A stretch of 64,000 nucleotides of DNA. Source: an uncultured Gammaproteobacteria bacterium. GTDB taxonomy: Bacteria; Patescibacteriota; Patescibacteriia; JACQRZ01. The stretch is from contig CAZUKY010000002.1 in the NCBI GenBank assembly GCA_964621085.1, positions 22,637 to 86,636 on the forward strand, read 5' to 3'. Each line of letters opens with the position of its first letter. Position 1 is the first letter of the stretch. The notes under the pieces are model-generated. The model worked only from the letters and a program-made list of their open reading frames with translations. It had not been told where the DNA came from and did no database searches. This document shows, piece after piece, positions 873 to 46,953 of the stretch. Both the position numbers and the translations under genes were made by a program.

Positions 873-876
873 GTAT

Positions 877-904
877 GACTCAGGAATCAGGACTCAGGAA
901 TCAG
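877..904. repeat. Short tandem repeat, 14-nt unit gactcaggaatcag x2 plus a partial copy
   Basis: Direct tandem copies read in the sequence between the SBP gene stop and pilin-like gene 1. Confidence 0.6.
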
Positions 905-943
905 GAATTGCGGCCATCATTCCCGCGCCGCGGCTGGCGGCGG

Positions 944-2311: not shown

Positions 2312-2318
2312 GTATTAT

Positions 2319-2669
2319 ATGAGCACATGGAAAGTTCTTATTGCAGTGATTTTTTTCTTGACACTTCTTTTCGCAAGTGTCGACCCAATCCTCGCTGCAA
2401 AGCTCGACGATCCGCTGAATATCGGCGAGAACAACAAGGGTATCCAGATCGTCGTCGGGCGGTTTCTCAAAGGACTGCTGGGGATATCGGGTGTTGTGGT
2501 GCTGCTGATGTTTGTCCTCGGGGGCTTTCAACTCCTTACCTCGGCTGGCGACAAGAAAAAATACCAGCAAGGAACAACGACGCTCTGGTGGGCCGCCGTC
2601 GGCATCCTGACGGTATTCGGCAGCTACGCGATCGTCGAGTTCCTCCTACGATCGTTTATTTCAGGGTGA
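2319..2669 (+). CDS. VirB2/TrbC-like pilin-family protein, paralog 2
   Basis: Signal-peptide-like N-terminus (MSTWKVLIAVIFFLTLLFASV). Core is LLGISGVVVLLMFVLGGFQLLTSAGDKKKYQQGTTTLWWAAVGILTVFGSYAIVEFL. The ATG at 2298 is an alternative start. Confidence 0.5.
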   Translation: MSTWKVLIAVIFFLTLLFASVDPILAAKLDDPLNIGENNKGIQIVVGRFLKGLLGISGVVVLLMFVLGGFQLLTSAGDKKKYQQGTTTLWWAAVGILTVFGSYAIVEFLLRSFISG

Positions 2670-2670
2670 T

Positions 2671-3381
2671 ATGAGCACGAGTCTGAAAAAAGTTTCATTG
2701 ATCATTGCGACAGCATGGCTGATCGGAGGCTTTTCGTTTGTGTCTGCAGAGGAAAGTCCGTCGGGTAGTGGCACATTTTTTTCATCGGACGGCAATTTGG
2801 AACCTTCCAACCCTTATGAAAACGATTACCAATCAGGAGTTCCTTCGACTTTGCAAAGCGCTCCGCTTTCCAATCCTTCACAGGTAGGACAGCTGAACTT
2901 TTGTCCTGGCGCCGGTACCACGCGGGCCGATATCACGACCGAGCAGGCATGCAACGCGTACTGCACGCATGAGAACAACTTTGAAAGGATGGAGGGCTTC
3001 GGTCTGAACAAATCGAAGTATGCCGACGTCGACTGCTGCTGCTGGAAGGGAAGCGTCACATCGCAACCCAAAAAAGTCACCTGCAGCGAGCTGCCGGATG
3101 GCACGTGCGAGCTTGGCAATACATTGAAAGGAGACGTCGCCAAGACGCCGCAGGAGTTTGCGGGGCGGATCATCAAGAACTTCTTGGGGATCGTCGGCGT
3201 GCTTGCACTCGTTATGTTTATGTGGGGCGGCGCGCAGATCATGATGTCTCGCTTCGGCGGCGACGATAAGACAAAATACCAGCAAGGCATCCAGACGCTT
3301 GTCGGCGCAGGCGCGGGCCTCGTTGTGATCTTTGGCAGCTACGCGCTCGTCGAGTTTCTCTTCTCCCGCCTCTTGTCGTAA
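2671..3381 (+). CDS. VirB2/TrbC-like pilin-family protein, paralog 3, with N-proximal Cys-rich insert
   Basis: Signal peptide MSTSLKKVSLIIATAWLIGGFSFVSA. Cys-rich segment (CPGAG..CNAYCTHEN..DCCCWKG..CSELPDGTCELG) precedes the core IVGVLALVMFMWGGAQIMMSRFGGDDKTKYQQGIQTLVGAGAGLVVIFGSYALVEFL. The ATG sits 1 nt after the upstream stop, consistent with translational coupling. Confidence 0.55.
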   Translation: MSTSLKKVSLIIATAWLIGGFSFVSAEESPSGSGTFFSSDGNLEPSNPYENDYQSGVPSTLQSAPLSNPSQVGQLNFCPGAGTTRADITTEQACNAYCTHENNFERMEGFGLNKSKYADVDCCCWKGSVTSQPKKVTCSELPDGTCELGNTLKGDVAKTPQEFAGRIIKNFLGIVGVLALVMFMWGGAQIMMSRFGGDDKTKYQQGIQTLVGAGAGLVVIFGSYALVEFLFSRLLS

Positions 3382-3384
3382 AAG

Positions 3385-3417
3385 TATCCCCATTCCGTCC
3401 GGAAAATGTGGTATACT
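3385..3417 (+). promoter_or_regulatory. Putative promoter: TATCCCCA, 16-nt spacer, extended -10 TGGTATACT
   Basis: Read directly: tatcccca(3385-3392), 16 nt, tggtatact(3409-3417), upstream of paralog 4. The same bipartite motif recurs at 5884 and 13113. Confidence 0.45.
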
Positions 3418-3468
3418 AACCATTACGTGAATAACTTTTTAAGCAGAGCCTTTGGCTCAATCGATCGT

Positions 3469-3855
3469 ATGGCACTTCGCAGGCTTTTCGCAGCCCTCTC
3501 TCTGGCCGGCATTCTCCTCGTTCCCGCAGGCGTGTTGGCGCAGGATCTCGACCCGTCGGATCCTGAAACGTTCCGGAAATACAATCCGCCCGTTTCTTCG
3601 AACGTCGAGACGGATATCGGCATGATCGCGAAAAACATCATCGGCGTCGTTATGGGTTTCCTTGGACTGTTCGCCGTGGTCATCATTATCATTGCGGGTT
3701 TCAAGTGGATGACGGCGGGCGGTGATGAGAAAAAGGTTGAAGAGGCGAAAAACCAACTCATCCAAGGCGCGATCGGTCTTGTCATCATCATCGCCTCCTG
3801 GAGCATCGCCTTTTTCGTCATCGAGCAGATCGCAAAGGTTGTCGGTGGGCAGTAG
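3469..3855 (+). CDS. VirB2/TrbC-like pilin-family protein, paralog 4
   Basis: Start chosen at MALRRLFAALSLAGILLVPAGVLAQD (signal peptide), downstream of the predicted promoter. Core is IIGVVMGFLGLFAVVIIIIAGFKWMTAGGDEKKVEEAKNQLIQGAIGLVIIIASWSIAFFVIEQI. Confidence 0.5.
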   Translation: MALRRLFAALSLAGILLVPAGVLAQDLDPSDPETFRKYNPPVSSNVETDIGMIAKNIIGVVMGFLGLFAVVIIIIAGFKWMTAGGDEKKVEEAKNQLIQGAIGLVIIIASWSIAFFVIEQIAKVVGGQ

Positions 3856-3874
3856 GGCATAAAACAACCTCCCC

Positions 3875-4324
3875 ATGCTTTTTCAAAAGACAGCATTCCT
3901 CTTTTTCGCGTGGAGCGCTGTCTTTTTGTTTTTCTTCGCCCCCATCAGCGGCACATTTTCGTTTGTTGATGCAGCCGAGTCTTCATCCGGGCCCGTGAAT
4001 TTGAATGTCTCCGGCACGGGCCTGGAAGACACCGGCAAGGCGGCTGGATTCAAAGAGGGGCAAAACCAATTGCCAGGGTATATCGGCACCGTCCTCAAGG
4101 CATTTTTTGGCGTGTTGGGTATTATCTTCCTCGCCTTGACGATCTATGGCGGCCTGCGGTGGATGCTCTCGCAGGGAAACGACACCGAAATCAAAGGCGC
4201 CCGCGATACGATTATTAGCGCGGTTATCGGCATTGCCATCGTTGCAGCATCCTATGCGATTACAGACTTTGTCATCGACCAGCTTGTAAAAAGCGGGGTA
4301 AAACAGGAGATTATCGGCGAGTGA
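3875..4324 (+). CDS. VirB2/TrbC-like pilin-family protein, paralog 5
   Basis: Hydrophobic N-terminus. Core is FFGVLGIIFLALTIYGGLRWMLSQGNDTEIKGARDTIISAVIGIAIVAASYAITDFVIDQL. Confidence 0.5.
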   Translation: MLFQKTAFLFFAWSAVFLFFFAPISGTFSFVDAAESSSGPVNLNVSGTGLEDTGKAAGFKEGQNQLPGYIGTVLKAFFGVLGIIFLALTIYGGLRWMLSQGNDTEIKGARDTIISAVIGIAIVAASYAITDFVIDQLVKSGVKQEIIGE

Positions 4325-4325
4325 T

Positions 4326-4724
4326 ATGCAAATCCTTTCTTCCATCATTTCTCGTGGAGCCGTGTTTGTGGGCGTATTCTTGCCGGCAACGGCAGTTTTT
4401 GCGGACAATCCTCCTGCAAACACAATAAAAGGAAATCTGAAAGAGAGTGCTAGTAGCGTATTTTCGCAAAGCGAGATTGCTGTTGTCATCGGCTCGATCG
4501 TCACTGCGCTTCTTGGAGTTCTGGGTGTCGTTTTTTTGGCGCTGTTGATCTATGGCGGCTTTCTGTACATGACTGACCTGGGCGATGAGAAGCAGGCGGC
4601 AACAGCAAAGAAACTGATCACGAATGCAACCATCGGGTTGGTTATCGTTGCAGTCTCGTTCGCGGTGACGAAGTTCGTGCTGGATAGCATCGGCGGGGCT
4701 GCCGGAGTAAGTGGTAGTTTTTAA
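4326..4724 (+). CDS. VirB2/TrbC-like pilin-family protein, paralog 6
   Basis: Signal peptide MQILSSIISRGAVFVGVFLPATAVFA. Core is LLGVLGVVFLALLIYGGFLYMTDLGDEKQAATAKKLITNATIGLVIVAVSFAVTKFVL. Start lies 2 nt after the upstream stop. Confidence 0.55.
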   Translation: MQILSSIISRGAVFVGVFLPATAVFADNPPANTIKGNLKESASSVFSQSEIAVVIGSIVTALLGVLGVVFLALLIYGGFLYMTDLGDEKQAATAKKLITNATIGLVIVAVSFAVTKFVLDSIGGAAGVSGSF

Positions 4725-4732
4725 GACCGTAT

Positions 4733-5317
4733 ATGGCAGAAATAAAGAAAAGAACAGTAACGCGTGCTCGTACGGGCCGCAGCGGTCAGGCAACACGAAA
4801 GCCGCGCGTCGCGGCTCGTCCTGTGCGTCGGAAGCGGCCCGCGATCTCGGCGGAGAATATTCCACAACTCGAAGCGGTCATCATAGAAGAGGGGAGAAGT
4901 GCAGAGCCTGGCCACATCATCTTTATGCAGCGCACAGGCGTCGTTCTCAACCGTGCGTTTAGCGTCACGACGGCGACAGTCCTTTCCCTTTCCCTTATGC
5001 TGGGTGGCATGACAACGTTCGCCGAAGGACTCAAATTTAGTGACGTGCAAAACAATGTCGGCGCCGAACTTGATCTGGCGACAGTCATCGCGAATATCAT
5101 CAACGTATTACTTGGTTTACTGGGTGTCGTTTTTGTGTTATTTGTTATCTATGGCGGGTTTCTCTGGATGACAGACAAGGGCGATGAGAAGCAGGCAGAG
5201 CACGCGAAAGCCGTCCTGAAAAACTCCACCATCGGCGTTGTCATCGTTGCGCTTGCCATGGCGATTTCCAACTTTGTGATCAGCACTCTGGCAACCAAGG
5301 TCTTTACAGGCGAGTAA
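4733..5317 (+). CDS. VirB2/TrbC-like pilin-family protein, paralog 7 (possible internal start at 4925)
   Basis: Core is LLGLLGVVFVLFVIYGGFLWMTDKGDEKQAEHAKAVLKNSTIGVVIVALAMAISNFVISTL. The first 64 codons are strongly basic and atypical. The Met at 4925 (MQRTGVVLNRAFSVTTATVLSLSLML) would give a signal-peptide-like start. Confidence 0.45.
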   Translation: MAEIKKRTVTRARTGRSGQATRKPRVAARPVRRKRPAISAENIPQLEAVIIEEGRSAEPGHIIFMQRTGVVLNRAFSVTTATVLSLSLMLGGMTTFAEGLKFSDVQNNVGAELDLATVIANIINVLLGLLGVVFVLFVIYGGFLWMTDKGDEKQAEHAKAVLKNSTIGVVIVALAMAISNFVISTLATKVFTGE

Positions 5318-5370
5318 GACTTTCGTACGCTTTTTTTCAAAATAGCTATAATCTCAATAATTTTGATCAT

Positions 5371-5811
5371 ATGAAAAAAGCTATTGCACTTTTCGGCGCA
5401 ACTGCTGCGATCTGCTCGCTTCTTGTGCCGGTTGCCGTTTTCGGTGCCGAAACGACTGTTTCTGGTTCGCTCGGCGGATCGACCGCCCCAACTGGAATAG
5501 GACAGGCGCTCCAGGGCGGCGCAACCGCTGAACTGGAGAAAGAGGACCTGTTTAAGACAAAGACCGACTTCATCACGATTGTTGCCAATATTATCAGTGT
5601 TATTTTGGGCTTCCTCGGACTGATCCTGGTCGCCTTCATCATCTATGCCGGCTTCCTCTGGATGACGGACAACGGCGACGAGAAACGCACCGAAACAGCA
5701 AAGAATATTCTCCGCAACTCGATTATCGGCCTCATCATCATCGTGGTAGCGTATGCGATTTCAAACTTTGTCGTGAGTACGCTGGCAACTGACGTCTTGA
5801 AGCAGCAGTAA
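5371..5811 (+). CDS. VirB2/TrbC-like pilin-family protein, paralog 8
   Basis: Signal peptide MKKAIALFGATAAICSLLVPVAVFGA. Core is ILGFLGLILVAFIIYAGFLWMTDNGDEKRTETAKNILRNSIIGLIIIVVAYAISNFVVSTL. A TATAAT -10 lies at 5347-5352 upstream and a terminator follows downstream. Confidence 0.55.
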   Translation: MKKAIALFGATAAICSLLVPVAVFGAETTVSGSLGGSTAPTGIGQALQGGATAELEKEDLFKTKTDFITIVANIISVILGFLGLILVAFIIYAGFLWMTDNGDEKRTETAKNILRNSIIGLIIIVVAYAISNFVVSTLATDVLKQQ

Positions 5812-5832
5812 GGAAGGCAAAAAGAAAGTAAA

Positions 5833-5861
5833 AGAGCGTCTGCGTACAGACGCTCTTTTTC
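5833..5861 (+). terminator. Rho-independent terminator closing the pilin-like array
   Basis: agagcgtctg / cgta / cagacgctct 10-bp stem followed by a T-run (ttttc). Confidence 0.7.
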
Positions 5862-5883
5862 AGTTGCGCCTTTTGCGCAAGGT

Positions 5884-5919
5884 TATCCCCATGAATAGAT
5901 ACCGAAAGATTGGTATACT
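5884..5919 (+). promoter_or_regulatory. Putative promoter: TATCCCCA, 19-nt spacer, TGGTATACT
   Basis: tatcccca(5884-5891), 19 nt, tggtatact(5911-5919). Lies about 35 nt upstream of the tail-fibre-like gene start. Confidence 0.45.
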
Positions 5920-5954
5920 TGAGCATATAGTGAGCGGCATTCGCCTGAACGGCG

Positions 5955-8900
5955 ATGCGGCATTTTCTCACATACCCCATGCCATCTCAATTTTCCAAAA
6001 GAGGATGGGCGCTCCTTACTGCAGTCGGAGCGATTTTTGCGTTGCTGACTGCAACCGCCTCGTCTACCTTCGCCCAACCCAAAAGCACCGAGGGTCCCAG
6101 CGCGACGCTCAATGAGCTGCTCGAGGATGAGACGCTCAAGAAGGTTATCAATCGCGGCGCGACCGATCAAAGCCGCAACGATGCGAGCGAGTACACGGGC
6201 CCGATCATCTTTGGGGGAAGCCTGGAGGTGCGCGGCGGGTTAAAGGGTGTACCAGACTCAGCCGATCCGAGTGATCCGAAGAAAAACAAGCTTTTGCTGC
6301 AAAAAGACGGCGGGAACGTCGGAATTGGAACGGCAACGCCGATAAACGCAGCGTTGGAAGTGGTTAAGGCGGGGGGCGTACAGGGACGGTTTGCGTACGA
6401 CGCCGATCGCTATATTGATATTATTGGGAATGTCGGCGTTAAGCTTCGCTCGGCAGACAGTCAGAACAACCCCCTTGAGATCGTAAAGGAGGGAAAGGGC
6501 GAGTTGGTTTTCAAGACCGGCCTCAATGGTGCAACAGCAGCCCGACTGATAATTCTTCAGGATGGCAACATTGGCATCGGGACGGCCGATCCGAAAAACA
6601 AACTGACGATTGGCTCAAGCAACAAGATTCAAGAGACGAAAGGGCTGGGCTTAGGCGCGGATCAGAATGTTGTCGAGTTGGTGCATTCAACGTACGGAAA
6701 CGGCTACGGATCAAAGCTCTACGGCCGCGATTTCGGTAATGGAGGGACGGGTCTTGCCATCGCTACGCGCGGAAATACGGGAACATGGACAGACGCCGTT
6801 ACGATCCGCGCAGATGACGCGACCGGCGGAAAGAACGGTAACGTCGGCATCGGCACGATTTCGCCGAATGCCGCACTTGCTATTTTTCGGAACGGCGTGA
6901 ATGCTGCGATCGACCTTGGATCGAAAGGCGAGAACGGCAACTATTGGTCGTTACGGCATGATGGCAGTGATGACAGACTCGCATTTTGGTTCAAAGATGG
7001 CGGCGATAAGTTGTCGCTTGGCAAAGACGGCGTGTTGTCTGGCAATGCATTCTCATCCCTTGCGAAGCAGTACGACTGGGTATCTTTGGGCGCGCGCACG
7101 ATGACGAGTCCCCAGCTTGCCGGCATTCCGCTCTGCGGCGCAAGCAACTTCAACAACCCTCTCGAACCGATTTGCTATACCGGCAGCGGCTCGAACTACG
7201 AGTTCAAGGAGCGCCAGGGCGTCGCCCATCCGAATACAAAACAGAAGGATGGCACGATCGCAACTCACGCACTTACTGCCGAGCGAAAGATCGCGATCGG
7301 TCTTCCTGGCTCGCAACAGAACGCTCTGTTGAACCCATCGTTGGAAATCAATCAGCCCTTCTACAGTCGCATCTTCCTGGGCGCGACGCAGTACCAACCA
7401 GAAGCCCAGCACGTGAAGATGGTCGTGGACGCCCGCGGCGACGGCCGCCTGGGCGGTGCGAACATGGGCCAGATCGGCACGATCTCGGGTCATCCCCTGA
7501 GCCTTTTGACAAATGACAGGGAACGCCTGCGCATCAGCGAATATGGCGGCGCAGAGATTTTTGCCTCGGAAAACAACACCAACGCTCTGGTCGTGAACGG
7601 CACGGTTCGCATCAAGAAGGTCGGTAACGAGCACGGCGGCTTGTATGTTGACGGCCCCGCTCAATTCCGCAACGGCATCACCTTCCCGCAGCTCGATGCA
7701 AATGGCAATCCAACCGCAACGAACCTCGCGTATATCAATCAGGCCGGCGACGCGATGTTTAGGAACCTACAGGTTAACGGCACCCTCACTGACAAGAGCG
7801 GCAATGAGTTTAAGCCCATCTGGTCTGGTGACGCAGCAAAGGCGTATCTTGCGAGCGGATTCGAAAACGCATCGGTCGGTATCGGTACGAATGATCCGAA
7901 GGCGAAGTTGCATGTGGAAGGTGATAATGGTCTTATGCTATCTCGAGCTGGCAACCAGACCTTGGGTGGAGGCCGTATAGGGCTTTTAGTCGGCTCCATC
8001 CTGAATGTTATTCAAAGCGCGGGTACTGGAAATTTGCATATATCCGGCGGCCTTGTCCCTGGTTCAGATGATCCTGTTCGCACTTCAGTAATTCTTCAGC
8101 CTACGGATGGTTATGTCGGTATAGGAACTATGCAACCGGGAGAAATACTCGCCTTGGGGGGCTCAAAGCCAGCGATTGATCTTGGCGCGGGTACTGAAAA
8201 CAGAGAGTTGAATGCAGGAAAAATCGCCTATCAGCGTTGGAGTGACGGTCTTGATATTGTTGGGGCGGGTGGCCCTAATGTAGCTGATCGAAAGATATAC
8301 TTTTATAATGAAGGAGGCGCTTTTTTTAACGGAGATGTGCAATTGAGCGCCACTAAAACATTACGGAGCTCAGGGCGAATGCATATCACGGGTGAAGAAA
8401 ACTTATATCTACTTAATAAGGGGGGAGTTGTAGTCAGTAATGCTTGGGGAGGAAACGGCAGTTTGACTGTAGATGGCAAAACCACTATCGGAAATGCAAG
8501 CACGAGAGGACAGGTGATGCTCGAGGTGCTTGGGAAAGCAGAGATTCATGGAGACGTGAACCTCAAACTCAGTAGCGCGAACAATCCGCTTGCGAAAAAG
8601 GGCTCGTATCTTGCCTACGATCCAAAGGTACAAGGTTTCGATATTGCAGAAAAATTTTCAACGGACTCCGATGTTGAGCCGGGGGATGTACTTGTTGCTG
8701 GTAAGAAGTCAAACACATTGACTCTATCCTCGAGACAATATCAAAAAGGCGCGATTGGCGTTGTTTCCACATCACCCGCTATCGTTTTTGAAGGAGGTGA
8801 GATAAAACTTGCCGCAGAAGCGCGGTTTTCGAAAGGGAAAAATCCCCCAGTAGCACTTTCAGGGCGTGTTCCAGTAAAGGTTACACTCGAAAATGGCCCG

Positions 8901-9131
8901 ATTCATCCTGGTGACTACCTCACGGCTTCATCAAGAAAGGGGTATGCGATGAAGGCAACCGAACCCGGCCCCATAATCGGCATCGCGCTTGAGTCCTATA
9001 CTTCGAGAACGTCAACAGAAAAGATCATGATGTTCGTGAATACTTCGGAAGGAAATACAGAACTGGTCACCCAGGAGTTATTGAAGCTTCGCAAGGAACT
9101 GGACGAGGTGAAGAAAAAGCTTCGAAAATAA
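5955..9131 (+). CDS. Phage tail-fibre-like secreted protein with C-terminal intramolecular-chaperone-like domain
   Basis: Signal peptide (..MPSQFSKRGWALLTAVGAIFALLTATASSTFAQP). The alternative start at 5979 is in frame. Five copies of the x-V-G-I-G-T-x-x-P-x-x-K/A-L motif (GNVGIGTATP, GNIGIGTADP, GNVGIGTISP, ASVGIGTNDP, GYVGIGTMQP) typical of tail-fibre-domain proteins. The C-terminus (PVALSGRVPVKV..GPIHPGDYLTASSRKGYAMKATEPGPIIGIALESY) resembles peptidase G2 / S74-type auto-processing chaperone domains. Terminal coiled coil is ELLKLRKELDEVKKKLRK. Confidence 0.55.
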   Translation: MRHFLTYPMPSQFSKRGWALLTAVGAIFALLTATASSTFAQPKSTEGPSATLNELLEDETLKKVINRGATDQSRNDASEYTGPIIFGGSLEVRGGLKGVPDSADPSDPKKNKLLLQKDGGNVGIGTATPINAALEVVKAGGVQGRFAYDADRYIDIIGNVGVKLRSADSQNNPLEIVKEGKGELVFKTGLNGATAARLIILQDGNIGIGTADPKNKLTIGSSNKIQETKGLGLGADQNVVELVHSTYGNGYGSKLYGRDFGNGGTGLAIATRGNTGTWTDAVTIRADDATGGKNGNVGIGTISPNAALAIFRNGVNAAIDLGSKGENGNYWSLRHDGSDDRLAFWFKDGGDKLSLGKDGVLSGNAFSSLAKQYDWVSLGARTMTSPQLAGIPLCGASNFNNPLEPICYTGSGSNYEFKERQGVAHPNTKQKDGTIATHALTAERKIAIGLPGSQQNALLNPSLEINQPFYSRIFLGATQYQPEAQHVKMVVDARGDGRLGGANMGQIGTISGHPLSLLTNDRERLRISEYGGAEIFASENNTNALVVNGTVRIKKVGNEHGGLYVDGPAQFRNGITFPQLDANGNPTATNLAYINQAGDAMFRNLQVNGTLTDKSGNEFKPIWSGDAAKAYLASGFENASVGIGTNDPKAKLHVEGDNGLMLSRAGNQTLGGGRIGLLVGSILNVIQSAGTGNLHISGGLVPGSDDPVRTSVILQPTDGYVGIGTMQPGEILALGGSKPAIDLGAGTENRELNAGKIAYQRWSDGLDIVGAGGPNVADRKIYFYNEGGAFFNGDVQLSATKTLRSSGRMHITGEENLYLLNKGGVVVSNAWGGNGSLTVDGKTTIGNASTRGQVMLEVLGKAEIHGDVNLKLSSANNPLAKKGSYLAYDPKVQGFDIAEKFSTDSDVEPGDVLVAGKKSNTLTLSSRQYQKGAIGVVSTSPAIVFEGGEIKLAAEARFSKGKNPPVALSGRVPVKVTLENGPIHPGDYLTASSRKGYAMKATEPGPIIGIALESYTSRTSTEKIMMFVNTSEGNTELVTQELLKLRKELDEVKKKLRK

Positions 9132-9232
9132 CAACCACTCATCTAATCCGCAGCATAAGGCGAAGCGATGACGTGATCCGTATATGAGCAAACGGAATCA
9201 GCGCTCTCGCTTCGCCTCTTCAGTAGAAAGGC

Positions 9233-12200
9233 ATGAAACCGTCAGCGCAAAATAATATATTCGCCAAGGGATTCCTCGGAATCCTTTTTGGCGTTTTAGC
9301 TACTGGTATTATCGGTTTCTTTCTCAACGTGGACCCAATTCAGGCCGCTTGGTGTATTACAAAAGGGGAAAAAACGGACTGCATCCCGAACTTCAATTAT
9401 ACAAGCGGCACGCCCGTCAATCAAACCTATCAAATCGAAGGAAAGACAGCTGATCCGAATAAGAAGTGGACGATAACGAACCAGCGTTCCGGCTATTGCA
9501 ATAATAATGTCTGTGTCAACGATCTTGGTCTGCCGAAATTTGAGATGGTTTCCCGAGGAGATGATAACGATACGGATGATAAGATCCAAATACGCCTGAG
9601 GGTCCAGGGCAACACCGGAAGCTATTGGTATGTACGAAAAAATAGTGGATACAGTAACGATGACGGGTACCCGAATACCGGAGATCCCCAAGAAGATCGA
9701 GGTCTTTCAAGGATCCAATACGATGGTATTCAAGGATTAAGAGGCGGGAATTACGCGCAAAATCTTTGTCCCGGGGATAATGGCAGTAGCTGGGACGACA
9801 AATTCGATGTCACTCAGGCAGGCGGATATTTTACTGCGGAAGCACCAGGACCGCGTACGTGCTATGACTCAAAGCTCGTCACTGTAACACATAAGGCGCC
9901 GCAGCAAGTTACAGACCCGAAACATCAGGACACATGGCGAGTGTATGTGTATAGCCCCCAGGATGGGATGATGCACTATACAGATCACACAGACGCTGGT
10001 ACTTATCCGAATGGGTGGAATGCCTATTGGAATAACTGCTGGAAGGGATGGCCATTAAATTGTGAAGGTCGCTGGGAGCAGCCACGCTATCCGGAGTGCG
10101 GCTGCGGCAAAAATGACCCCACTGAAAAGCTCTGTATAAGTTACGGCGTGGCCGGCTTACAATCAAACAATAACTGCTACGACTTCTTTAAAAAGCACAT
10201 CGGCTTTGGGACGAAAACAGAAAATTCTAAAACAGTGACAGAGATGAGGTACCGCGAGGTTACCACGGTGCCCCGATTTAGTCTCGCTACGCTCAACAAT
10301 AAAACTGCATATGCTCCCCATAGAGAAGGTGCGGTATGGCCTGACAATACCTACTTACTCTACTATGATACAAAGAATTTAAATCGAACGGACGGGGCAA
10401 AAAATAAGGTAAAGGCCGTTCAGAACGAGCAGCCGGTTTTTTCCGATCTTAACAAGTGCATTTTTGACCGTAAATTTCTTGAAGTAACACATCATGGTTC
10501 GTACACTGATTATGTTGTTCAAGCGGAAGGACTTCTCGGCAACAGGTTCATCGGATGGCTTTTGTTAAGCCGCGATGAACAAAATGCTATAAAACAAAAG
10601 ATTCTTACGCATGATAAAAGGTTCTACGACAGATCTATAAAAGACGCGCAAAATGAGGAACAAGTAGGGCTGGTACTCATGAGTTTTAAAGCCACCGATG
10701 CATTCAAAAATGACGTCATCAATTCCAAGTTACTAAAAGAGAAGGAGTTTAACGTCATATTCAAGGGAGTATCGCAAACCGTCCAGGCGGCTACCGAAGT
10801 CCCCAAAGAAAAAGATGAGGGCATTGCATGTCGCGCACAACTGCCCTCAGAGTTCGGCATGACCAGTACATATACGTACTTTACTGGTCCAGCTTCAATA
10901 CCGCCTGTTGAGATTCGTTCGTTTCGGGCGACAGCGGTCGGTCCGGATAGTGACTTTGTCGGCGAGACAACACAAGAGCTTACAAGTATTGGAAGCGGCG
11001 CTAATGTTCTCCCCGACCCAACTAATCGATTTTCGTCTGCGCGTGCTGACCTGAGTGCTGGCGCGGGCGAAGTATTGGATCTGCAGGCATACCAGGATAC
11101 CGTCAATCTCAGACTGGAGTGGCAAACTCCCTTTGCCGGCCGGGTACGGATTTTTCAAAAAGATGAGCGGCATGCGACGGCGACGGATCTCAGTCAGTTG
11201 GCGTGTTTGGGTAGATGGGGGGACATCATTGACAGTAATGACCCATGCCCGGCAAGGGGAGAAGTAACATCTGTACGGGAGCTTACGGTTGAGGGACTTC
11301 AGAGCAATAAGAACTATACGTTTTATATCGTCGTCGAAAATAAGCGCGGCGACAGCACCGCGCTACAGCCGACTCAGTGGGCTACAGCCGCCAGACTCGA
11401 CGTTACTGTCCGGCCGGCACCGATTGTCGTCACGAGCGCAACCGCGAAATACGTGAAAGGAAAGGAGAACTGCAAGAGTAATGCATTACCGGGCCAGACC
11501 AATACTCCGACCGAGTGCGCGGAAATTACCTGGAAAGTCGATGGTAGACCGACAGAGATAGTTCTTAAAGCGCCGAAAGGATGGAATAGGACAGTATGGA
11601 CAGACCATACATTCGCTTCGCACTCCTACACGTCAAACGGTGATTTTGACAGATATTTTCCTATTCATACAAGCGAAATCAATCGTTATCGCTCAAATTT
11701 TATCCTCATTGCAAAACGCGGCGATATTACATCGGCCGAGTTTCCTTTTGAGCTTCGAGGCGTGCCGCGCGATCCTATGACAATCGCGGCAGAAGGATGG
11801 AAGGATGGCAACAATGTTCGTGACAAGTCTCTTTTTGAGGCGATTCTCAATACCGACTGCGATGAGTGGTGGCCAGGTTTAGATTTGATATGCAGAGGAA
11901 CGACATTTAGCAGTATTTTTAATATCGCTCGTGAGTCAATATCGTCATCGCTCGCCGGTGCACTGGCAGTAGTGACTGGAGGTGCCGGCGCACTCCTTAA
12001 GCCGATTGTCGATTTTGTTCTAAGGGTTGTTGAGCCGATTGCCTTTGGATTGGTTGGTATGATAGGAAATTTAGTGCAGGCGAACAACGAGAATCTTATT
12101 GACTGGAAGAAGGACATTAATTGGCAGCCATTTCTCGGTTCCTTCGGACTGAGTTTCGCAGTCAATTCATTTACCGGCGTGCTTCAGGCGATCTTTGGAA

Positions 12201-13069
12201 AATGTGCGGCAGCGCCCCTCGTTGGTGCAATTCACCAGGTTATTGATCTTGTCGGCACGCTCCTCAGAATCGCTGGAATTAATTTAGGCTGTCCGGATGG
12301 TGAAGAAAATAGCTGCGAAATGGGAGCAGATATGGGGAAGACAATGGGAATAATTGCCGGTGAAACAGTTTATTATGCAGTAACCGGCGATAACTCTTGG
12401 AAGCCAGAGGTCTGCCCTGGTGAAAAACCTCCGGAAGAGGAAGAAGATCCGTGTACTCCGAAGCCAGGCGAACCGTTCGATTACGCGAGATCGCAAGAGT
12501 GTTTTGGAGAGAAGTATCTGCCCCAACGCTATGGATGCAACGAAGAAAATAAGTGCGTGCCCGCTGAAGCCGGTACCTTTGCTGATCCGTTATGCAGTAA
12601 CACATGCGATGTGTCAAAAATTGTCGAGAAGAAGGTAACGGAAATAGTAAAAGAAGACACAAAATCAATATTTGACTGCTCGGGTACTGTGGATGGAACC
12701 GAAGTCGGTCAAGGTTATGGCGGTGAGCGATATGCTAACGAATACCAGTATAGAACGCGCTCAAAGAAAGCGGTTGCCGATGCGCTTATGTCAGCATATT
12801 ATGTTGCGACGTGTGGTAAATTTTGCCTGAGAAAGGACGCGGCTCTTAGTTGTTCTGAGGATCTCTACAACAATAATAAAAACAATTTCGATTCAATATT
12901 TAATACCGCAGATTCGTATATTGATGACAAAAATAGACGGAATCTAAGTACCAAGGTGCATGATAATCTGTTCCGTGATACGTTTGATGGTCTCATGAAA
13001 GAGGCAGCTTCATGCGGCATTAAAGATGTTACTAGGTTTATTCCCGTCCCCTGCGCATTCGCACAATAA
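9233..13069 (+). CDS. Large Cys-rich membrane-anchored hypothetical protein (1278 aa)
   Basis: N-terminal TM helix (FAKGFLGILFGVLATGIIGFFLNV). Many Cys throughout. Internal Gly/Ala-rich hydrophobic segment (AGALAVVTGGAGALLKPIVDFV..FGLVGMIGNL). Visibly AT-richer than flanking genes. No family recognised. Confidence 0.5.
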   Translation: MKPSAQNNIFAKGFLGILFGVLATGIIGFFLNVDPIQAAWCITKGEKTDCIPNFNYTSGTPVNQTYQIEGKTADPNKKWTITNQRSGYCNNNVCVNDLGLPKFEMVSRGDDNDTDDKIQIRLRVQGNTGSYWYVRKNSGYSNDDGYPNTGDPQEDRGLSRIQYDGIQGLRGGNYAQNLCPGDNGSSWDDKFDVTQAGGYFTAEAPGPRTCYDSKLVTVTHKAPQQVTDPKHQDTWRVYVYSPQDGMMHYTDHTDAGTYPNGWNAYWNNCWKGWPLNCEGRWEQPRYPECGCGKNDPTEKLCISYGVAGLQSNNNCYDFFKKHIGFGTKTENSKTVTEMRYREVTTVPRFSLATLNNKTAYAPHREGAVWPDNTYLLYYDTKNLNRTDGAKNKVKAVQNEQPVFSDLNKCIFDRKFLEVTHHGSYTDYVVQAEGLLGNRFIGWLLLSRDEQNAIKQKILTHDKRFYDRSIKDAQNEEQVGLVLMSFKATDAFKNDVINSKLLKEKEFNVIFKGVSQTVQAATEVPKEKDEGIACRAQLPSEFGMTSTYTYFTGPASIPPVEIRSFRATAVGPDSDFVGETTQELTSIGSGANVLPDPTNRFSSARADLSAGAGEVLDLQAYQDTVNLRLEWQTPFAGRVRIFQKDERHATATDLSQLACLGRWGDIIDSNDPCPARGEVTSVRELTVEGLQSNKNYTFYIVVENKRGDSTALQPTQWATAARLDVTVRPAPIVVTSATAKYVKGKENCKSNALPGQTNTPTECAEITWKVDGRPTEIVLKAPKGWNRTVWTDHTFASHSYTSNGDFDRYFPIHTSEINRYRSNFILIAKRGDITSAEFPFELRGVPRDPMTIAAEGWKDGNNVRDKSLFEAILNTDCDEWWPGLDLICRGTTFSSIFNIARESISSSLAGALAVVTGGAGALLKPIVDFVLRVVEPIAFGLVGMIGNLVQANNENLIDWKKDINWQPFLGSFGLSFAVNSFTGVLQAIFGKCAAAPLVGAIHQVIDLVGTLLRIAGINLGCPDGEENSCEMGADMGKTMGIIAGETVYYAVTGDNSWKPEVCPGEKPPEEEEDPCTPKPGEPFDYARSQECFGEKYLPQRYGCNEENKCVPAEAGTFADPLCSNTCDVSKIVEKKVTEIVKEDTKSIFDCSGTVDGTEVGQGYGGERYANEYQYRTRSKKAVADALMSAYYVATCGKFCLRKDAALSCSEDLYNNNKNNFDSIFNTADSYIDDKNRRNLSTKVHDNLFRDTFDGLMKEAASCGIKDVTRFIPVPCAFAQ

Positions 13070-13112
13070 AAAGAGGAGCTCTAGGGCGGAGCGCTGATGC
13101 GGTGAATGAACC

Positions 13113-13148
13113 TATCCCCACAACAAACAGAACAGGGAGTGGTATGAT
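13113..13148 (+). promoter_or_regulatory. Putative promoter: TATCCCCA, 19-nt spacer, TGGTATGAT
   Basis: tatcccca(13113-13120), 19 nt, tggtatgat(13140-13148). Lies about 70 nt upstream of the giant protein gene. Confidence 0.45.
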
Positions 13149-13217
13149 AGAAGTGCCGTTCTTATTTGAACGGCAGGGCGTTTACCGCCATTTTAGGCAA
13201 CGTATATCAAGAGGCGC

Positions 13218-16200
13218 GTGCCCGTATTTTTGAGACATCATCGGCTGGTTTTCGCTGCCGGGGTTTTGGCCCTTGGCGGGTTTTTTGGCGTTCCCGTACT
13301 TGCGAATGCTCTTAGCGTCATGGTGGCAACGCCATTTCGAATCAGTACGCCTATCAACGGAACGGTGGTCACACTGCCGGAAGCGAAAGTGACGGTTCCA
13401 ATTACTGTTGTGTCGCCAGGCGACCAATATGCTGGCGTTACGGTTACCGCAGAGATCCGTTCGGCAAGCGGTGATGTGCGGACGCTTCCGATGAGTGTTT
13501 CATCGACCGGTGCAGCCGGAACGACATTTTCTGCGCAGTGGACTGCCACGACCGTCGGGAGCTACCTGATCACTGCGCGCGCAACGCAGTCCGGGTATAA
13601 TGACCGGGTCAGTGCGCCGGTTCGCGTGAATATCATCTCTCCGTCCGGAAACGCATCAGGGCGCATTTCCGGCGCTTTTACGCAGAGTGCCGCCAAGCAA
13701 GCCGGAAAATTCGACGTCATTCCTGGAACAGATGCAGGTGCAATTCCTGGTGACTACCGCCGGCCGCGCATTGGGCCCGTTCTGCCGCCGATCTTTGAGT
13801 TCAGTATTTCGGAACCGCTTGAACAGAAAGTGATGATGGATGTCAGTCTTTACGGCGCCGAAGCGCGAAAAGCCGCGGCAGAGAACTCGCGATTCCTGCT
13901 TGATTGGAGTGCAAATACTATTGCTCGCGAGCTGTCTGCCGGTGCACAGGAACGCATTCCGATCTATCGGAATGGCGCTGCTATTGTGCTCTCTGTTGGG
14001 CAAGTCAACCAAAATGCATACATCGATCTCTACTCCGCGCCGTACTATGACGGAGTTGCCGATGATATCGAGGATCCGATAAAATCAGTTCCCGGTTTTC
14101 AGAAACTGAAGGCCTGTCCGAATGCAGTCTCGTGCATTTTTTCTTTGGGGACAGCCAAGAACGGCCGGCATATCGTAGTCGCTCGTGTCAGTGCGAATGG
14201 CATCTCGCGCTTCTCATATCGTCTTGTCGAGGTGCGCGGGCAGAATGCGGCGCCGATTGTTGCAATGAGTCTTCTGAGCGATCAGAAACCATTTCTCCTG
14301 CCGCAAAAATTGAACATCCGAGTAGATGTGGCAGATGCTGACTCGGATCGCAATGCCGCTGGCAGCCCCATCGAGCGAGTGATTATTTTTGCGGGAGACA
14401 AAAAGATTGCCGAACTCGAAAAGCCAACACAAAATATTAATACGCGCACGGAAAAATTCAATTCTCTTTTTAAAGATCTCGATTTTTCGACGTACGCCAC
14501 ACTGCAGACGTATGCGGCCGAGTGGAAGGTTGAAAGCGGCCGCCATGACCTACGCGCGGTCGCAATCGACACCGAAGGCATGCCGTCAGATCCCTTTGTT
14601 ATTAAGGATTTCATTGCAACCGAGCGGCCGAAAGTTTCTGATCTTATCGTCGTCGGAAAGGAGCGTCCGTCGGATAGCGGTCCGTGGATCGTGCAAGAAG
14701 GAGAGGAGTTCACGTTGCAAGCAAAAGCGACAGACGACGGACGCATCGTGTCGATGGCATTTACGAGCGAACAAAAGGCGGCAGGCGGCGGATCCGCCTC
14801 GCCAGTTTCCGGTGAAGACAATCTGTATCGTCTCACCGTAAAGGATCGCGCCGCCGGCGCTGAATACGTATACGCCGGCATTGCACAGGATAACGAGGGG
14901 GTTACCAACGATCCTCTGCCGCGGATGACCGTCAAGATGAATAAGAAGCCGGATATCCGAGATCTGTCCCGTGATGCCGAGGAGTATCAGCCGAATACAA
15001 AAGTAACGCTTGCCGCACTTGCAAAGGACATCGATAGCGCGCTTTCATCCGTCGAGCTCGTTGATGCAAAGACAGGAGCCCGCATCGATTTCAAAGAAAA
15101 TATCGGCGCTTCAAAAAATACCGATTACGCCTACCGCTTCGAGTGGGTGCCGCCATGGAATGAAGATGCGAAAAATGTCGATCAGAGCGCGATGCACTCG
15201 CTTAAGCTCATCGTCCGGGATGCGGACGGCGGCGTTCGCGAGGCGACCTTCCCGACGGTGACCGTTCGCAACCGTGCGCCGTCCGTCACCAAATTTTCCG
15301 CCACAAAGGCGGTGTATCAGGATACCGAGCCCGTCGTCGTATCACTTGAGGCAATCGATAACGACAGTGGCATGAACGGCGTCACATTTGTCTTGAAAAA
15401 CACCGCCGGAACACTCAGTAAAAATTTCATTCTCAATGCCCCGACGCGGCCGGTGTCAGGCATTGATGTACGACGAGGCGGGGTGTATGAGGCCGAGATA
15501 AAAAATCTTGCGCCGGACTCCTACATCATAACGGCGATCGCTTCGGATATCGCTTCGCCCGCAAAAGCATCACCCGAACAGGTGGTGAGTGTCCGTGTCA
15601 ACGCGCCGCCGACGGCAGAAGGCCTGACGGTTTCCACTCCGCTCGTCCAACCGAACGTGCCCGCGACTTTTTCGATTATCGCGCGGGACAGCGACAGCGA
15701 CGTGAAAAGCGACAGTCGGATCGGGTCGGTGATGCTGCTGCGCGATGGTGTGGAAATCGCCGTCATGCGTCTGCGCGCTGGCAGTGGCGACACCTATGAA
15801 GCGAGCTGGACGCCGACCCTGTGGTCGCCAGACATTCCCGATCAGGCACAGCAGTATATCTCGAAAGGTTTTTCCGTACGGATCGAGGATACGGATAGGC
15901 GGCGCATCGAAAAAAAGACAGACATAACAGTAACCGTCAAGAATGATCCGCCTGCGCTTGTGCCGGATGGCAAGCAGCTGACCGAGCGGAGCGTCTATCA
16001 GAAGGGCGAGACCGTGACACTCTCGGCCGCTGTCAGTGATGCGGATAGCGGCGTTGCGCGCCTTCAGTTTTTCGCGAATGGGACGGCGATTCATACCATC
16101 GACAATCCTTCCCAAAAAGTTTCGTTCCAGTGGAAGCCGACTCCCGGAAGTTATGCCCTGACGGCAACGGCGACCGATCGCGCGAAACCGGTCAAGACGG

Positions 16201-19200
16201 CACAGTATCCGTCCGGAACCAATACGGTCGCAATCAAGGTCAACAATCCGCCGACGATCGATCGCATCGAGGTTGCGCCGAGTGCGCGCAAAACGGCGGA
16301 GTACCAGCCGAACGAACCGGTGAGCGTGACGGTCTACGCGACAGATGCGGACGGAAGCATTTCTCAGTCGGAGGTGCGCCTCATTGATGAGAAGGGAGCA
16401 AATCTCCCTATTGCGCTCAAGAAGGCAACACAAGCCGCAACAAAAGACGGCAAGGGAAACACGTATGCCTTCCAGATCGAGTGGCGTCCGACGTGGGCAG
16501 AGGATGGGGCGAATACAAACCAGTCGATGGTCTTTCCGTTCCGCGCGAGCGTGAAAGATAGCGACGGCGCGCAGCCCGAGGTTCTCGAGCAGTCGCGCGT
16601 AATAGTGAAGAACAGCGCACCGACAATTTCGGCTGCGGTAGCAAAGAGCGCGGCGAGCGACGGAAGATATTACGAGGGTGTCGACATTGCGCTTTCCGCG
16701 ACCGTGAAGGACGCCGAAGGAGAGGTTGGCGGCGTTACCTTCTATCGCGAGGAAGATAAAACGGCAATCGGCACTGGCGCGCGCGGCACGGCAGATACCT
16801 TCTCATACCTTTGGAAAAACGCGGCCGCAGGCACGCACCAGCTTTCCGTAAAAGCGATCGATAAAGCCCAACCGCCAAAGACCGCGCGGTATCCGGCAGC
16901 GGCAGGGCAGTTTATTCCGATTAAGGTGCTGGCAAAGCCGTCGATCGTATCCTTTACGGGTCCGACTCCCACCGTCGTTCATCTGAGCGGCGGAAACACA
17001 GGAACGGCGTCAATTCCGTTGGAATTGAAGGTGTCGGATCCGGACGGCATTGTGGCAAAGGCCGAGATCATCGGCAAGGGTGCGATGGCATCCGTGGGCA
17101 GCGGCACATATCGGTTGACGGTGTCGGAAACCGAACAAAAGATCCACTCCTATCGGGCGCGCCTCACCGACGCGATCGGCAGGACGTATGACTCGACGGT
17201 TGTCGCGGTGCGCGTCAACAAGCTTCCGACCGCAGCGATCGTGTCGCCGGCGGAAGCGGCAGTGTATTATCCAGGAACATCAGTCACGGTTACGATTGAC
17301 GCAGCCGATCCTGACGGTTCTGCTGACGGTGCGTCTGCAGGACCGGCAGAGAGCGCTAGATTGCGCGTAACGCATGGCGGCGCGACACAGGAATATCCTG
17401 CGCAGGCAGCGGGCGTGAACCGCTATACTGCAACCTTCAAAGTCGAGACAGAGGGATCTTATTCGCTTACGGCGATTTCCCGCGATAGAGATGACAAAGA
17501 CTCCCCTCTGTCTGCATCGCGGACGATCGTCGCGCAAAATGCAACGCCCGCAGTCAGCGATCTGAAGAGCGTGAAGAGCGTCTATCAGACCGGCGAGAAT
17601 GTAACGGTGTCACTCGATGCGCTGGATGCGGACAGCGGCATGGCGCGCGTCGAGTTCCTGTTGAACGGGAAGCAGACCGGCGGCGGCGCAATTTCTGAGC
17701 GAAAGGTGTCGGTAACAGCTGCCTCTGCTGGAAATGGATGTGCGGATAAGAATAAGAAGTGCACATATACCGCGAATTTCAGCGGCATTCCGGCTGGCGA
17801 GTACTCGGTGCGTGCGGTTGCATTTGACAAGGAGACTCCCGAAAAATTCGCAGCGACCGGAACAGCGGTATCCATGAAAGTTCACCGCACGCCGATCATC
17901 AGCGCATTCTCGGCAGGGAAGCCTCTCTATCAGAAAGGAGAGCGAGTGACTGTTTCGGCTACTGTGCAGGCGGACAACGGCATTGCGGGGAGCGGGTCGG
18001 CTAGTTTTGTGGAGTTCACCGCGAATGGCGCAAGAAAAGCAGTGCGGTATCCATCATCAGGCAACTGTTCGGCGGCATCATGCACGTTCAGCAGTGTCGA
18101 TCTCGGCGTTCTTTCGGACGGTGCGACCTATACGCTTAGCATTCGCGCCGTCGATACGGCAGGGAAGGCGAGCGCGACCGGCCAGTCTGGACAGGCAGCG
18201 ACCGCATCCGTCAAGGTGAATACGCCGCCGGCCGTTTCGGTAGCCGCAGCAGCACAGGGAAGAGATGCGGCAAATCAAGAGATCCGTTCGGATATTCCCG
18301 TAACAATTACGATTGCGCCCCGCGACAGTGACGGACAGATCGCTTCTGTGACACTGACGCAAGAGTACACGCCCTCGGGCTCATCAGCAGCGACGCGAAC
18401 CGTCGAGACGGCAACGCCGGGAAGTCGCCCTTCCGGTTGGGGGTATGACGCGCAGAGCGGAAACTTCACCCGAACGATCACGCCTGCCGCGGGATCGTAC
18501 AGCCTAACAGCTGTCACGCATGACACCGATGGCGCGCCGAGCGCGGTATCGAATACGATCGCGTTTATCGGAAGAAATGAAAAGCCCTCGATTGCGAGTA
18601 TGAATGCCAGCAAGGGCGTCTATCAGCAGGGTGAGTCGATCGGCGTTGAGGTGAAGGCGAAAGATGTTGATAGTGGCATGAAAGAAGTGGCATTTGTTCT
18701 CGGCGGTGATACGCGTGCCGTTCCAGCGACACAAGCGGCTGGCGGCGGTTGCGGTACGCGGGATAAGGAGTGCGTCTACGCGACAAGCTTTTCGAGTCGC
18801 AGTCCCGGCACCTATACGATTACGGCAACTGCTCGCGATACCGTGAATCCGCCTGGAGAGGCGGGCAGGACGGCAAGTTTCCGCGTGAATGCTGCTCCGT
18901 CCGGACGCATCTCTGCTCCCCAAACCGTCCAGATGAATGCAGGATTTACACTGATCCTGGATGCGACCGACAGCGACAGCAAATCGTCCGGTCCGGCAAG
19001 CGCATCAAATGGCATCAAGAGTGTTTCCTTCTCCGGTCCCGGCGTTGACAACGCGAGAATTGCGGTGAGCAACGTGACGGCAGGCGGCGCGCGCTACTCG
19101 TTGGCAGTTTCCGGGCAAGAGGCAGGCGGCCCCAAGTCGTATTCGGCAACAATCACAGACTGGGACGACAATAGCTTTACGACACCCGTCGCCGTTGTCG

Positions 19201-21761: not shown

Positions 21762-21772
21762 GGAGTGAATAT

Positions 21773-46416: not shown

Positions 46417-46953
46417 TCAGTAATCAAATAACATTGGAGAGAAAATACTCTTCTCTTCGATGGCTAGGGGGAATTCTTTTCCTAGGAAAGAGGATATCTC
46501 TGAAATATGTTTTTGAATATGTTTTTCACGCGTATCAATATCCAAAAGCATTTTTTTCTCCCCACGGTTTTTTAAAAGAAGTATAAGCGTCGGCAGATAA
46601 GAGGGGCCAGGCTCAAAACTTGGATTGCGACGCCTCTCTATAATAAAACCCTCGATATCATTAAACGACACATGGACACTTCTTTTTTTGAAGCCGAGAA
46701 GTGTTTTTTCAAGAACGCACTCTTGTGTTGTTGCATCGAACGTAATATTTTTTCTATCCTGTGAGAGGAGACCAACAGCAAGTGTAAGGATTACGAACAA
46801 TGATACTCCAACTCCGCGGATGAAAAATCCTGATCCATATATTCCCATGACCACTCCAATAGTAAGAAGGCATACCGCTAAAATAAGACTAAGGAATCTT
46901 TTGTTGTGCTCGAGCGTAAGAACAAGCTGATTATTGCGTAGCACTGTTTTCAT
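46417..46953 (-). CDS. Hypothetical membrane protein (178 aa), low-GC
   Basis: Two predicted N-terminal TM helices (FLSLILAVCLLTIGVVMGIYGSGFFIRGVGVSLFVILTLAVGLL). No recognisable family. Markedly AT-richer than neighbours. Confidence 0.5.
   Translation of the reverse strand: MKTVLRNNQLVLTLEHNKRFLSLILAVCLLTIGVVMGIYGSGFFIRGVGVSLFVILTLAVGLLSQDRKNITFDATTQECVLEKTLLGFKKRSVHVSFNDIEGFIIERRRNPSFEPGPSYLPTLILLLKNRGEKKMLLDIDTREKHIQKHISEISSFLGKEFPLAIEEKSIFSPMLFDY

Follow-up and report, generated by a model that had tools for sequence, protein, structure and literature searches.

A predicted secreted, cysteine-rich surface protein and its fibre-gene partner in an Uhrbacteria-like Patescibacterium

Most surface proteins of ultrasmall episymbiotic bacteria are unannotated, and little is understood of the ways in which these bacteria recognize, hold on to and exploit a host. 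Epibiotic growth depends on surface adhesins, several of which are essential in Southlakia epibionticum (PMC11665869), and Patescibacteria carry arrays of 2–11 VirB2-like pilin genes, one array being essential in the same organism (PMC12102498). The literature searched covers these arrays and the general importance of adhesins but describes neither the protein family nor the cassette of fibre and cysteine-rich genes reported here. The subject of this report, hereafter the target, is a gene for a cysteine-rich protein of 1278 residues at positions 9233–13069 of a 64,000-nucleotide stretch of contig CAZUKY010000002.1, the whole of which is called the window. The window bears the hallmarks of Patescibacteria (candidate phyla radiation, CPR); the presence of IleRS, RuvA, FemAB, RpoB/C, FtsK and RecA shows it to be chromosomal and not phage DNA, and its host is best explained as an episymbiotic-type, Uhrbacteria-like Patescibacterium.

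The target gene lies between the gene of a fibre-like secreted protein and that of a giant surface protein, downstream of an array of VirB2-like pilin genes. In place of an apparent orphan, the analysis shows a member of a small protein family built from defined modules, and one half of a conserved pair of fibre and cysteine-rich genes, often accompanied by a protease and a membrane protein. It also describes what is probably the concrete footprint of a cassette exchange with its breakpoint inside the fibre gene, and it offers, as testable candidates, possible determinants of host specificity and a possible membrane-active module. No new mechanism is revealed.

Relatives and modules of the cysteine-rich protein

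The target open reading frame starts with ATG on the + strand, with a possible Shine-Dalgarno-like GAAAGG 4 nt upstream, and the protein contains 36 cysteines (2.8%). The gene is supported by the open reading frame list, its translation and four homologues. In these respects the locus is as a first-pass annotation, made from the letters alone, had described it: an open reading frame of 1278 residues, rich in cysteine, between fibre-like and giant genes. The annotation's remark that the protein has no recognizable family also agrees with our searches, since Pfam, NCBIfam, PHROG and PDB return no family match beyond a sub-threshold fn3 similarity. Its description of the protein as an orphan fails, because four full-length relatives are found with phmmer and individual modules are shared with the related loci L004, L006, L007 and L012.

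A k-mer-indexed search of 5.8 billion proteins returns at most the target itself with the full protein or the family alignment as query, and the target itself or nothing with the alignment of the C-terminal domain. Exhaustive phmmer/HMMER searches of 1.84 billion representative proteins find four collinear relatives with similarity over ~1000 residues: P0002 (1211 residues, phmmer E 3.7e-83), P0003 (1255 residues, E 3.1e-23), P0004 (MBI4252812.1, annotated as hypothetical in a Candidatus Uhrbacteria metagenome-assembled genome (MAG), deposited with 1307 residues, E 1.1e-10) and P0005 (1172 residues, E 1.5e-9). P0004, encoded at 9593–13924 of locus L002, has seemingly been called 136 residues short; its in-frame upstream extension holds the family signal peptide and N-terminal cysteine motif, and its true length is 1443 residues. 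A fifth phmmer match covers fibronectin type III (Fn3) repeats only, and a scan of species-representative genomes with the alignment of P0001 and P0002 finds no relative. With five full-length members in 1.84 billion representative proteins, the family is rare. The alignment of the target with P0002–P0005 (alignment A1) has 51 invariant columns, including cysteines 179, 289, 291, 301, 315, 409, 533, 876 and 1108.

Individual modules reach further than the full-length similarity. Iterated hidden Markov model (HMM) and hhalign searches over the open reading frames of 89 related loci place the N-terminal N1 module in the window and in L001, L002, L003, L004 and L007 (E 1e-31 to 1e-39 by iterative HMM; hhalign probability 92.7% for L004), the J module in L007 (E 1e-21), and the C-terminal domain in L002, L003 and L012 (E 1e-37 to 1e-42; hhalign to L012, 97.7%), while the Gly-rich region of P0005 matches L006 (E 1e-26). 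The hhalign scores of the target against the cysteine-rich proteins of L009, L011, L013 and L014 and the 672-residue protein of L002 are insignificant, and these five are treated as positional analogues rather than family members. The other members of the family occur in genomes or loci of 42–50% GC. By these sequence comparisons, the target is a predicted member of a small, undescribed, modular family of cysteine-rich secreted proteins in Uhrbacteria-like Patescibacteria.

The first-pass annotation had taken the protein to be anchored at its N-terminus. A hydrophobic stretch is present there (residues 8–37; hydropathy maximum 2.27, Eisenberg mean hydrophobicity <H> 0.90, low hydrophobic moment), and it belongs to a probable Sec signal peptide, residues 1–39 (9233–9349; this and all further target modules lie on the + strand), with Lys residues at its start, a hydrophobic core of 19 residues and the site IQA↓AW. 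Every family member has such a small-x-small site at the end of the hydrophobic segment, and the conserved motif x-[YFW]-C-x-G-x(2-6)-C comes directly after it. This arrangement fits a cleaved Sec signal peptide and not a permanent N-terminal anchor, so the N-terminus is probably a signal peptide that would be removed on secretion.

The N1 module follows at residues 37–135 (9341–9637), with cysteine pairs 41/50 and 89/94 and the motifs P-x-L-E-M-V-D-R-G and Y-W-Y. Residues 136–525 (9638–10807) form a variable, cysteine-containing region that is conserved in the core family only, with invariant cysteines at 179, 289, 291, 301, 315 and 409. The J module, residues 526–570 (10808–10942), has the pattern G-x2-C-R-A-x-L-x-S-P...Y-x-Y-[FY]-T-G...P-P-x2-I-x-S-F and contributes invariant columns to alignment A1. 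A β-sandwich region of Fn3/Ig-like type, residues 571–865 (10943–11827), probably comprises two domains. Its matches to Fn3 are weak: Pfam fn3 (PF00041) scores 17.4 bits (E 0.005) at residues 670–714, below the gathering threshold of 25 bits, and in the PDB the Fn3 domains of twitchin and neogenin match at E 0.27. With jackhmmer, the search converges on Fn3-like repeats from many loci.

The annotation had also pointed to a Gly/Ala-rich amphipathic segment that might interact with membranes. The segment is found at residues 908–947, within a hydrophobic region (residues 903–1021) of a larger Gly-rich, glycine-zipper helical module at residues 866–1060 (11828–12412), supported by hydropathy, motif counts and a low-confidence AlphaFold2 model. 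AlphaFold2 was run with five-sequence alignments on residues 850–1278 and 37–560. The former model is all-helical over the Gly-rich module, with about five helices (892–914, 919–950, 964–988, 990–1013 and 1025–1051), of which H2 and H4 are amphipathic (hydrophobic moment 0.53–0.57) and H3 is evenly hydrophobic. Glycine makes up 12.7% of residues 866–1060 as against 7.6% elsewhere in the target, and charged residues are depleted. Small-xxx-small-xxx-small motifs occur 10 times, compared with 4.2±2.1 in shuffled sequences, which is an excess of about twofold; seven of the ten relatives tested also show an excess (~1.7-fold or more), which is absent in P0004, L004 and L007. A hydrophobic segment stands at the equivalent position in L004, L007 and L009, the last a positional counterpart with no detectable homology; the segments of L004 and L007 precede a cysteine-free, Pro/Ser-rich tail. 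At E≤5, Pfam gives no match for six Gly-rich modules, pore-forming and glycine-zipper families included. The anatomy suggests that the module mediates association with a membrane.

Cys 876/887 and Cys 1020/1028 bracket the Gly-rich module. Beyond it lie an acidic, Pro- and Cys-rich linker, residues 1061–1170 (12413–12742), with short C...C units, poor alignment across the family and pLDDT below 30, and a helical C-terminal domain, residues 1171–1275 (12743–13057), with the motif K-[KR]-A-V-A-D-A-L-M...C...C and conserved cysteine pairs (alignment A7). Conserved cysteines occur as sequential pairs or groups throughout the protein (41/50, 89/94, 289/291/301/315, 876/887, 1090/1108, 1198/1207 and 1261/1274), and the target has no CxxC motif. 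Paired cysteines on both sides of the hydrophobic module, in a protein with no CxxC, argue for disulfides and for a position of both flanks outside the cytoplasm.

The fibre partner and the shared low-GC3 tract

The gene immediately upstream of the target (5955–9131, + strand) encodes the fibre-like secreted protein of 1058 residues, which matches PHROG tail-fibre families at residues 119–317 (E 7e-9). Its conserved C-terminal domain, residues 850–1058 (nt 8502–9128), is 44–50% identical to its counterparts in L001–L003 (alignment A3). Searched for in species-representative genomes, this domain occurs at six loci, of which four are in Candidatus Uhrbacteria MAGs; it also occurs in 140 metagenome stretches and in none of 2.9 million viral contigs. 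A gene of the cysteine-rich family stands directly 3' of the fibre gene in the window, L001, L003 and L007, and within a few genes of it in L002, L004 and L006. More generally, the closest fibre C-terminal domains belong to 13 distinct loci, and all of these encode a cysteine-rich protein (2.2–5% Cys) with an N-terminal signal-like segment within two genes downstream, and at 11 of the 13 this protein contains an internal Gly-rich hydrophobic region. More distant fibre homologues occur in other gene contexts.

Further genes recur in related cassettes. A metzincin-like family of 339–399 residues, with an HExxHxxGxxH motif and a weak Matrixin match, follows the cysteine-rich gene in L001 (7503–8540), L002 (13942–15093), L003 (6885–8084) and L006 (13720–14739). 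Mutually homologous polytopic membrane proteins of GPDPase_memb/UPF0259-like type are encoded in L003 (8104–8997), L004 (8116–8985), L006 (14769–15710), L012 (4926–5840), L013 (12212–13417) and L014 (12284–13384), and thus recur even where the cysteine-rich proteins are not detectably homologous. In L011, a distant relative and the only syntenic locus found, the order is pilin array, fibre gene, cysteine-rich gene and IleRS-RuvA-FemAB, with no giant gene and with an IleRS 59% identical to that of the window. The cysteine-rich gene of L011 encodes a non-homologous thrombospondin-repeat protein; the syntenic block is thus old and its cysteine-rich position variable. In L013 the pair is found inside a type IV pilus cluster (2846–7270 and 13766–14845) with PilM, a PilB-type ATPase and a PilT-like ATPase, an association suggesting that the pair keeps company with surface-appendage loci generally and not only with VirB2-like arrays.

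The target gene had been noted as AT-richer than its surroundings, and its acquisition by horizontal transfer had been proposed. Its GC content is indeed 0.473 against 0.537 for the window, and it is the lowest-GC 3.8-kb stretch there; the deviation is modest (z −1.6 to −1.8), and the 64-kb window is the baseline for all composition values. GC at third codon positions (GC3) is 0.468, compared with a mean of 0.614 over the 37 other window genes, and the GC deficit arises mostly at third positions and less through amino-acid composition. The AT-rich tract is not confined to the target and begins ~1.3 kb upstream of it, inside the fibre gene, whose first 652 codons have a GC3 of 0.655 and the remainder one of 0.423, with the switch at ~nt 7911 (z=7.4). 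Low GC3 persists through the target. The tract, comprising the 3' third of the fibre gene, the spacer and the target (7911–13069, + strand), has a sharp left edge and a right edge between 13069 and ~14486; a fit with two breakpoints gives 7907–14486 with a fuzzy right edge. The best GC3 splits in seven housekeeping genes tested reach |z|≤2.8, and the last 400 fibre codons of ten related loci show no comparable switch in either direction (|z|≤2.9).

Synonymous codon usage (RSCU, relative synonymous codon usage) compared with that of the window's housekeeping genes gives r=0.31 for the target, 0.76 for the fibre gene and 0.87 for the giant gene. The target resembles the neighbours of its closest homologue more (L001, a 48%-GC locus; r=0.64). 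The tract is not flanked by tRNA genes, which occur in the window only at 28849, 49819 and 53329, nor by repeats, and no integrase is found among the window's annotated genes. The fibre 3' third and the target (~5.1 kb) were probably replaced as one block by homologous recombination; the donor would be a relative of lower GC that had the same cassette. Horizontal acquisition as originally proposed is partly supported: the breakpoint, the codon usage and the different cysteine-rich gene of L011 point to a foreign or recombinant origin, but of a block rather than the gene alone, probably exchanged among relatives and with no mobility markers. Joint movement of the two parts fits a functional partnership.

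A second low-GC3 tract (~0.43–0.44) at 21153–22538 runs from the last part of the giant gene, which has a split at z=4.8, through codon 264 of the downstream gene for a 756-residue protein; a further patch of recombination within this surface locus is a possible explanation. The two lowest-GC genes of the window lie on the − strand at 46417–47854 (GC 0.389 and 0.444) and are shorter than the target. One of the two, of 294 residues, has a weak C-terminal T4SS_pilin match (E 0.01), which would make it a further pilin-like gene of deviant composition outside the array.

In the spacers on both sides of the target there are inverted repeats, GCGAAGCG...CGCTTCGC at 9160–9215 upstream and GTGCCGTTC...GAACGGCAG at 13153–13176 downstream, that could be transcript-end or processing hairpins; a consensus terminator scan made no call at them, and scanning for promoters and terminators gave counts at chance level. 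The target was also considered as a target of a diversity-generating retroelement and rejected as such: no direct repeat of at least 40 nt involves 9233–13069, and no reverse transcriptase is present among the annotated genes.

Possible roles at the host-contact surface

The target probably belongs to the host-contact surface, a function suggested by its anatomy and context. In the reading that we favour, and that in our estimate could equally prove right or wrong as a whole, it is a Sec-secreted, disulfide-stabilised modular surface protein with a conserved fibre partner, associated with a membrane through its glycine zipper, that forms part of a host-contact unit and was replaced as a block. 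Removal of the signal peptide would expose the conserved Cys-loop N-terminus and the N1 module, and the two Fn3/Ig-like domains would serve as a stalk. The glycine-zipper module at residues 866–1060 would associate with a membrane, most likely the producer's own, as two helical hairpins, a mode of entry that would keep both cysteine-rich flanks outside. Together with the fibre protein, whose C-terminal domain would co-vary and co-transfer with it, the target may constitute a fast-evolving unit of host contact or adhesion beside the VirB2-like pilin array.

Several points weigh against this reading. The Gly-rich helices are moderately hydrophobic (Kyte-Doolittle maximum 1.74; <H> 0.2–0.5 as against 0.90 for the signal peptide) and contain conserved charged residues, such as E934-P935, and for both reasons they are not classical membrane anchors. 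The AlphaFold2 models are unusable, with pLDDT 39.7 for residues 850–1278 and 30.8 for residues 37–560, the latter model being confident only at a helical insert (residues 436–511). A physical interaction between target and fibre protein is suggested by the adjacency of their genes only, and the functions proposed for all modules derive from anatomy and context. The window locus has neither the metzincin-like nor the polytopic membrane proteins that accompany the pair elsewhere. Finally, the target's codon usage resembles that of relatives with lower GC, but this largely repeats the GC3 signal.

The alternatives differ in whether they dispute the history of the tract or the role of the protein. 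Vertical inheritance, with low GC3 caused by weak expression or relaxed codon selection and by an Asn/Lys/Tyr-rich composition, would dispense with any transfer, and it draws on the low GC3 of other surface genes (0.495 for the 756-residue protein and 0.507 for the pilin fusion), on the small z of the target and on the homologues, three of six of which lie 1–2 GC points under their own loci. Relaxed selection affects whole genes, however, and gives no account of a switch at codon 652 that is absent from ten related fibre genes; the deficit is, moreover, mainly one of third positions and not of amino-acid composition, and we consider this explanation unlikely. Horizontal transfer of a lone orphan from an unrelated source to a site between the fibre and giant genes is very improbable in our judgement. 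The low GC of the stretch, its codon usage unlike that of both flanks and the k-mer-indexed search that gave the target alone all suit such an insertion, but homologues occupy the same position after a fibre gene in related Patescibacteria, the compositional tract starts within the fibre gene and not at a gene border, mobility genes, tRNA genes and repeats are missing from its flanks, and there are no phage or viral matches. A remnant of a prophage tail, in which the target would be a tape-measure or ejection protein with Gly-rich membrane segments beside a tail fibre, is more doubtful still, to the point of being scarcely credible. Gly-rich hydrophobic segments are common in tape-measure proteins, and the upstream protein has its PHROG tail-fibre match at 7e-9; yet the target has no PHROG match and none by tblastn in 50,697 phage records, the fibre C-terminal domain is absent from the viral contigs, the neighbours are housekeeping genes with conserved IleRS-RuvA-FemAB synteny, and a Sec signal peptide and paired cysteines are ill-suited to a protein inside a virion.

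Other alternatives keep the protein at the surface and change what it does there. It could be an effector active on the host membrane, in which a metastable zipper bundle would insert on contact as a pore or conduit, targeted by the fibre and the N-terminal modules. The amphipathic H2 and H4 beside the evenly hydrophobic H3, the enrichment of zipper motifs, the extracytoplasmic look that cysteine pairs give to both flanks and a mean hydrophobicity too low for a constitutive anchor are all compatible with this, the metzincin-like protease of related cassettes could process such a protein, and nutrient uptake from hosts by epibiotic Patescibacteria is an open question (PMC11665869). The absence of a pore-forming or glycine-zipper match in Pfam at E≤5, the lack of a usable structure, and the ordinary single hydrophobic segment of L007 and, by position only, L009, with an anchor-like, cysteine-free, Pro-rich tail in L007, speak against it, and we rate it as rather improbable. 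An extension of the same idea, which we hold to be marginally less probable, takes the fibre protein, the cysteine-rich protein and the relatives' metzincin-like protease and polytopic membrane protein as an undescribed contact apparatus, whose zipper would open a nutrient conduit in the host and whose fibre C-terminal part and target would be exchanged as a specificity cassette. The target might instead be a component of a VirB2-like (type IV secretion) pilus, as a tip adhesin comparable to VirB5 or as a VirB6-like membrane subunit, given the eight-gene pilin array 3.4 kb upstream, the same order in L011 and the fact that Patescibacteria have so far yielded no PrgB-type adhesin (PMC12102498). 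Against this, L005 has the pair but no pilin array within 10 kb of it, and L013 has the pair inside a type IV pilus cluster; further arguments are the lack of VirB4 in the window, an hhalign probability of 0.4% against the pilin domain and the absence of T4SS family matches in Pfam, NCBIfam or PADLOC-independent searches, and such a role appears distinctly improbable.

The surrounding locus and known systems

The window opens with a gene segment for the C-terminal part of a solute-binding protein (SBP_bac_1; 24–872, + strand), followed on the same strand by eight paralogues of VirB2-like T4SS_pilin (PF18895), identified by Pfam and by BLAST among the paralogues and listed at 341–5811 with a probable true start at ~900. 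The first pilin open reading frame (341–2311), listed with 656 residues and 29 cysteines, probably starts near nt 900; its pilin domain (residues 250–315) is followed by a ~340-residue cysteine-rich C-terminal extension. Downstream of the target, the giant surface protein of 2847 residues (13218–21761, + strand) has Big_7/Ig-like repeats (Pfam Big_7, E 6.9e-42, and other Ig-like families) and weak similarity to a PA14/Big_7 giant in L003. The 756-residue protein with a cysteine-rich C-terminus is encoded at 21746–24016 (+ strand). Its gene contains three copies of a 200-nt repeat within 22052–23157, two of which (22574–22773 and 22958–23157) are 99% identical and the third 62%, and a second repeat pair at 22318/22792; these repeats point to recent internal duplication. 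Genes for IleRS, RuvA, FemAB, RpoB, RpoC, FtsK and RecA follow on the + strand from 24100.

Comparison with described systems gives partial likenesses in several directions. Phage fibre and tape-measure modules share with the locus a neighbour similar to PHROG tail fibres and Gly-rich hydrophobic helices, and differ from it in that the target has no phage homologues, a housekeeping context and a secretion signal. Membrane-active glycine-zipper domains include the GxxxG zippers of VacA type, the glycine-zipper toxins of type VI and type VII secretion and the helical bundles of colicin-type pore-forming proteins. Their Gly-rich helices, enrichment in small-xxx-small motifs and mixture of amphipathic and hydrophobic segments resemble the target module and offer a lead, although there is no sequence or profile similarity and the target module sits between disulfide-rich parts of a Sec-secreted protein of 1278 residues. 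The Fn3-like region shows, over residues ~600–860, weak matches to fibronectin type III (PF00041) and recruits many Fn3-like repeats on iteration; it makes up less than one quarter of the target and stays under the Pfam gathering threshold.

The VirB2/TrbC-like pilins (PF18895; PMC12102498) share the locus and have paired hydrophobic helices, and some members of the array are fused to cysteine-rich ectodomains, whereas the target is ten times larger and not homologous to them. The idea that the Gly-rich module is a divergent VirB2 pilin was rejected, with an hhalign probability of 0.4% against the eight pilin domains of the window and no PF18895 or PF04956 match. The adhesin-like surface proteins of Patescibacteria (PMC11665869) combine, as the target does, a Sec signal, a large modular Ig/Fn3-like ectodomain, a surface-appendage neighbourhood in a reduced genome and rapid divergence. 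The target is unrelated in sequence to the named adhesin families, and it is set apart from the Patescibacteria adhesins by a glycine-zipper module of its own in the C-terminal third, a cysteine-paired C-terminal domain and an obligatory pairing with a fibre gene.

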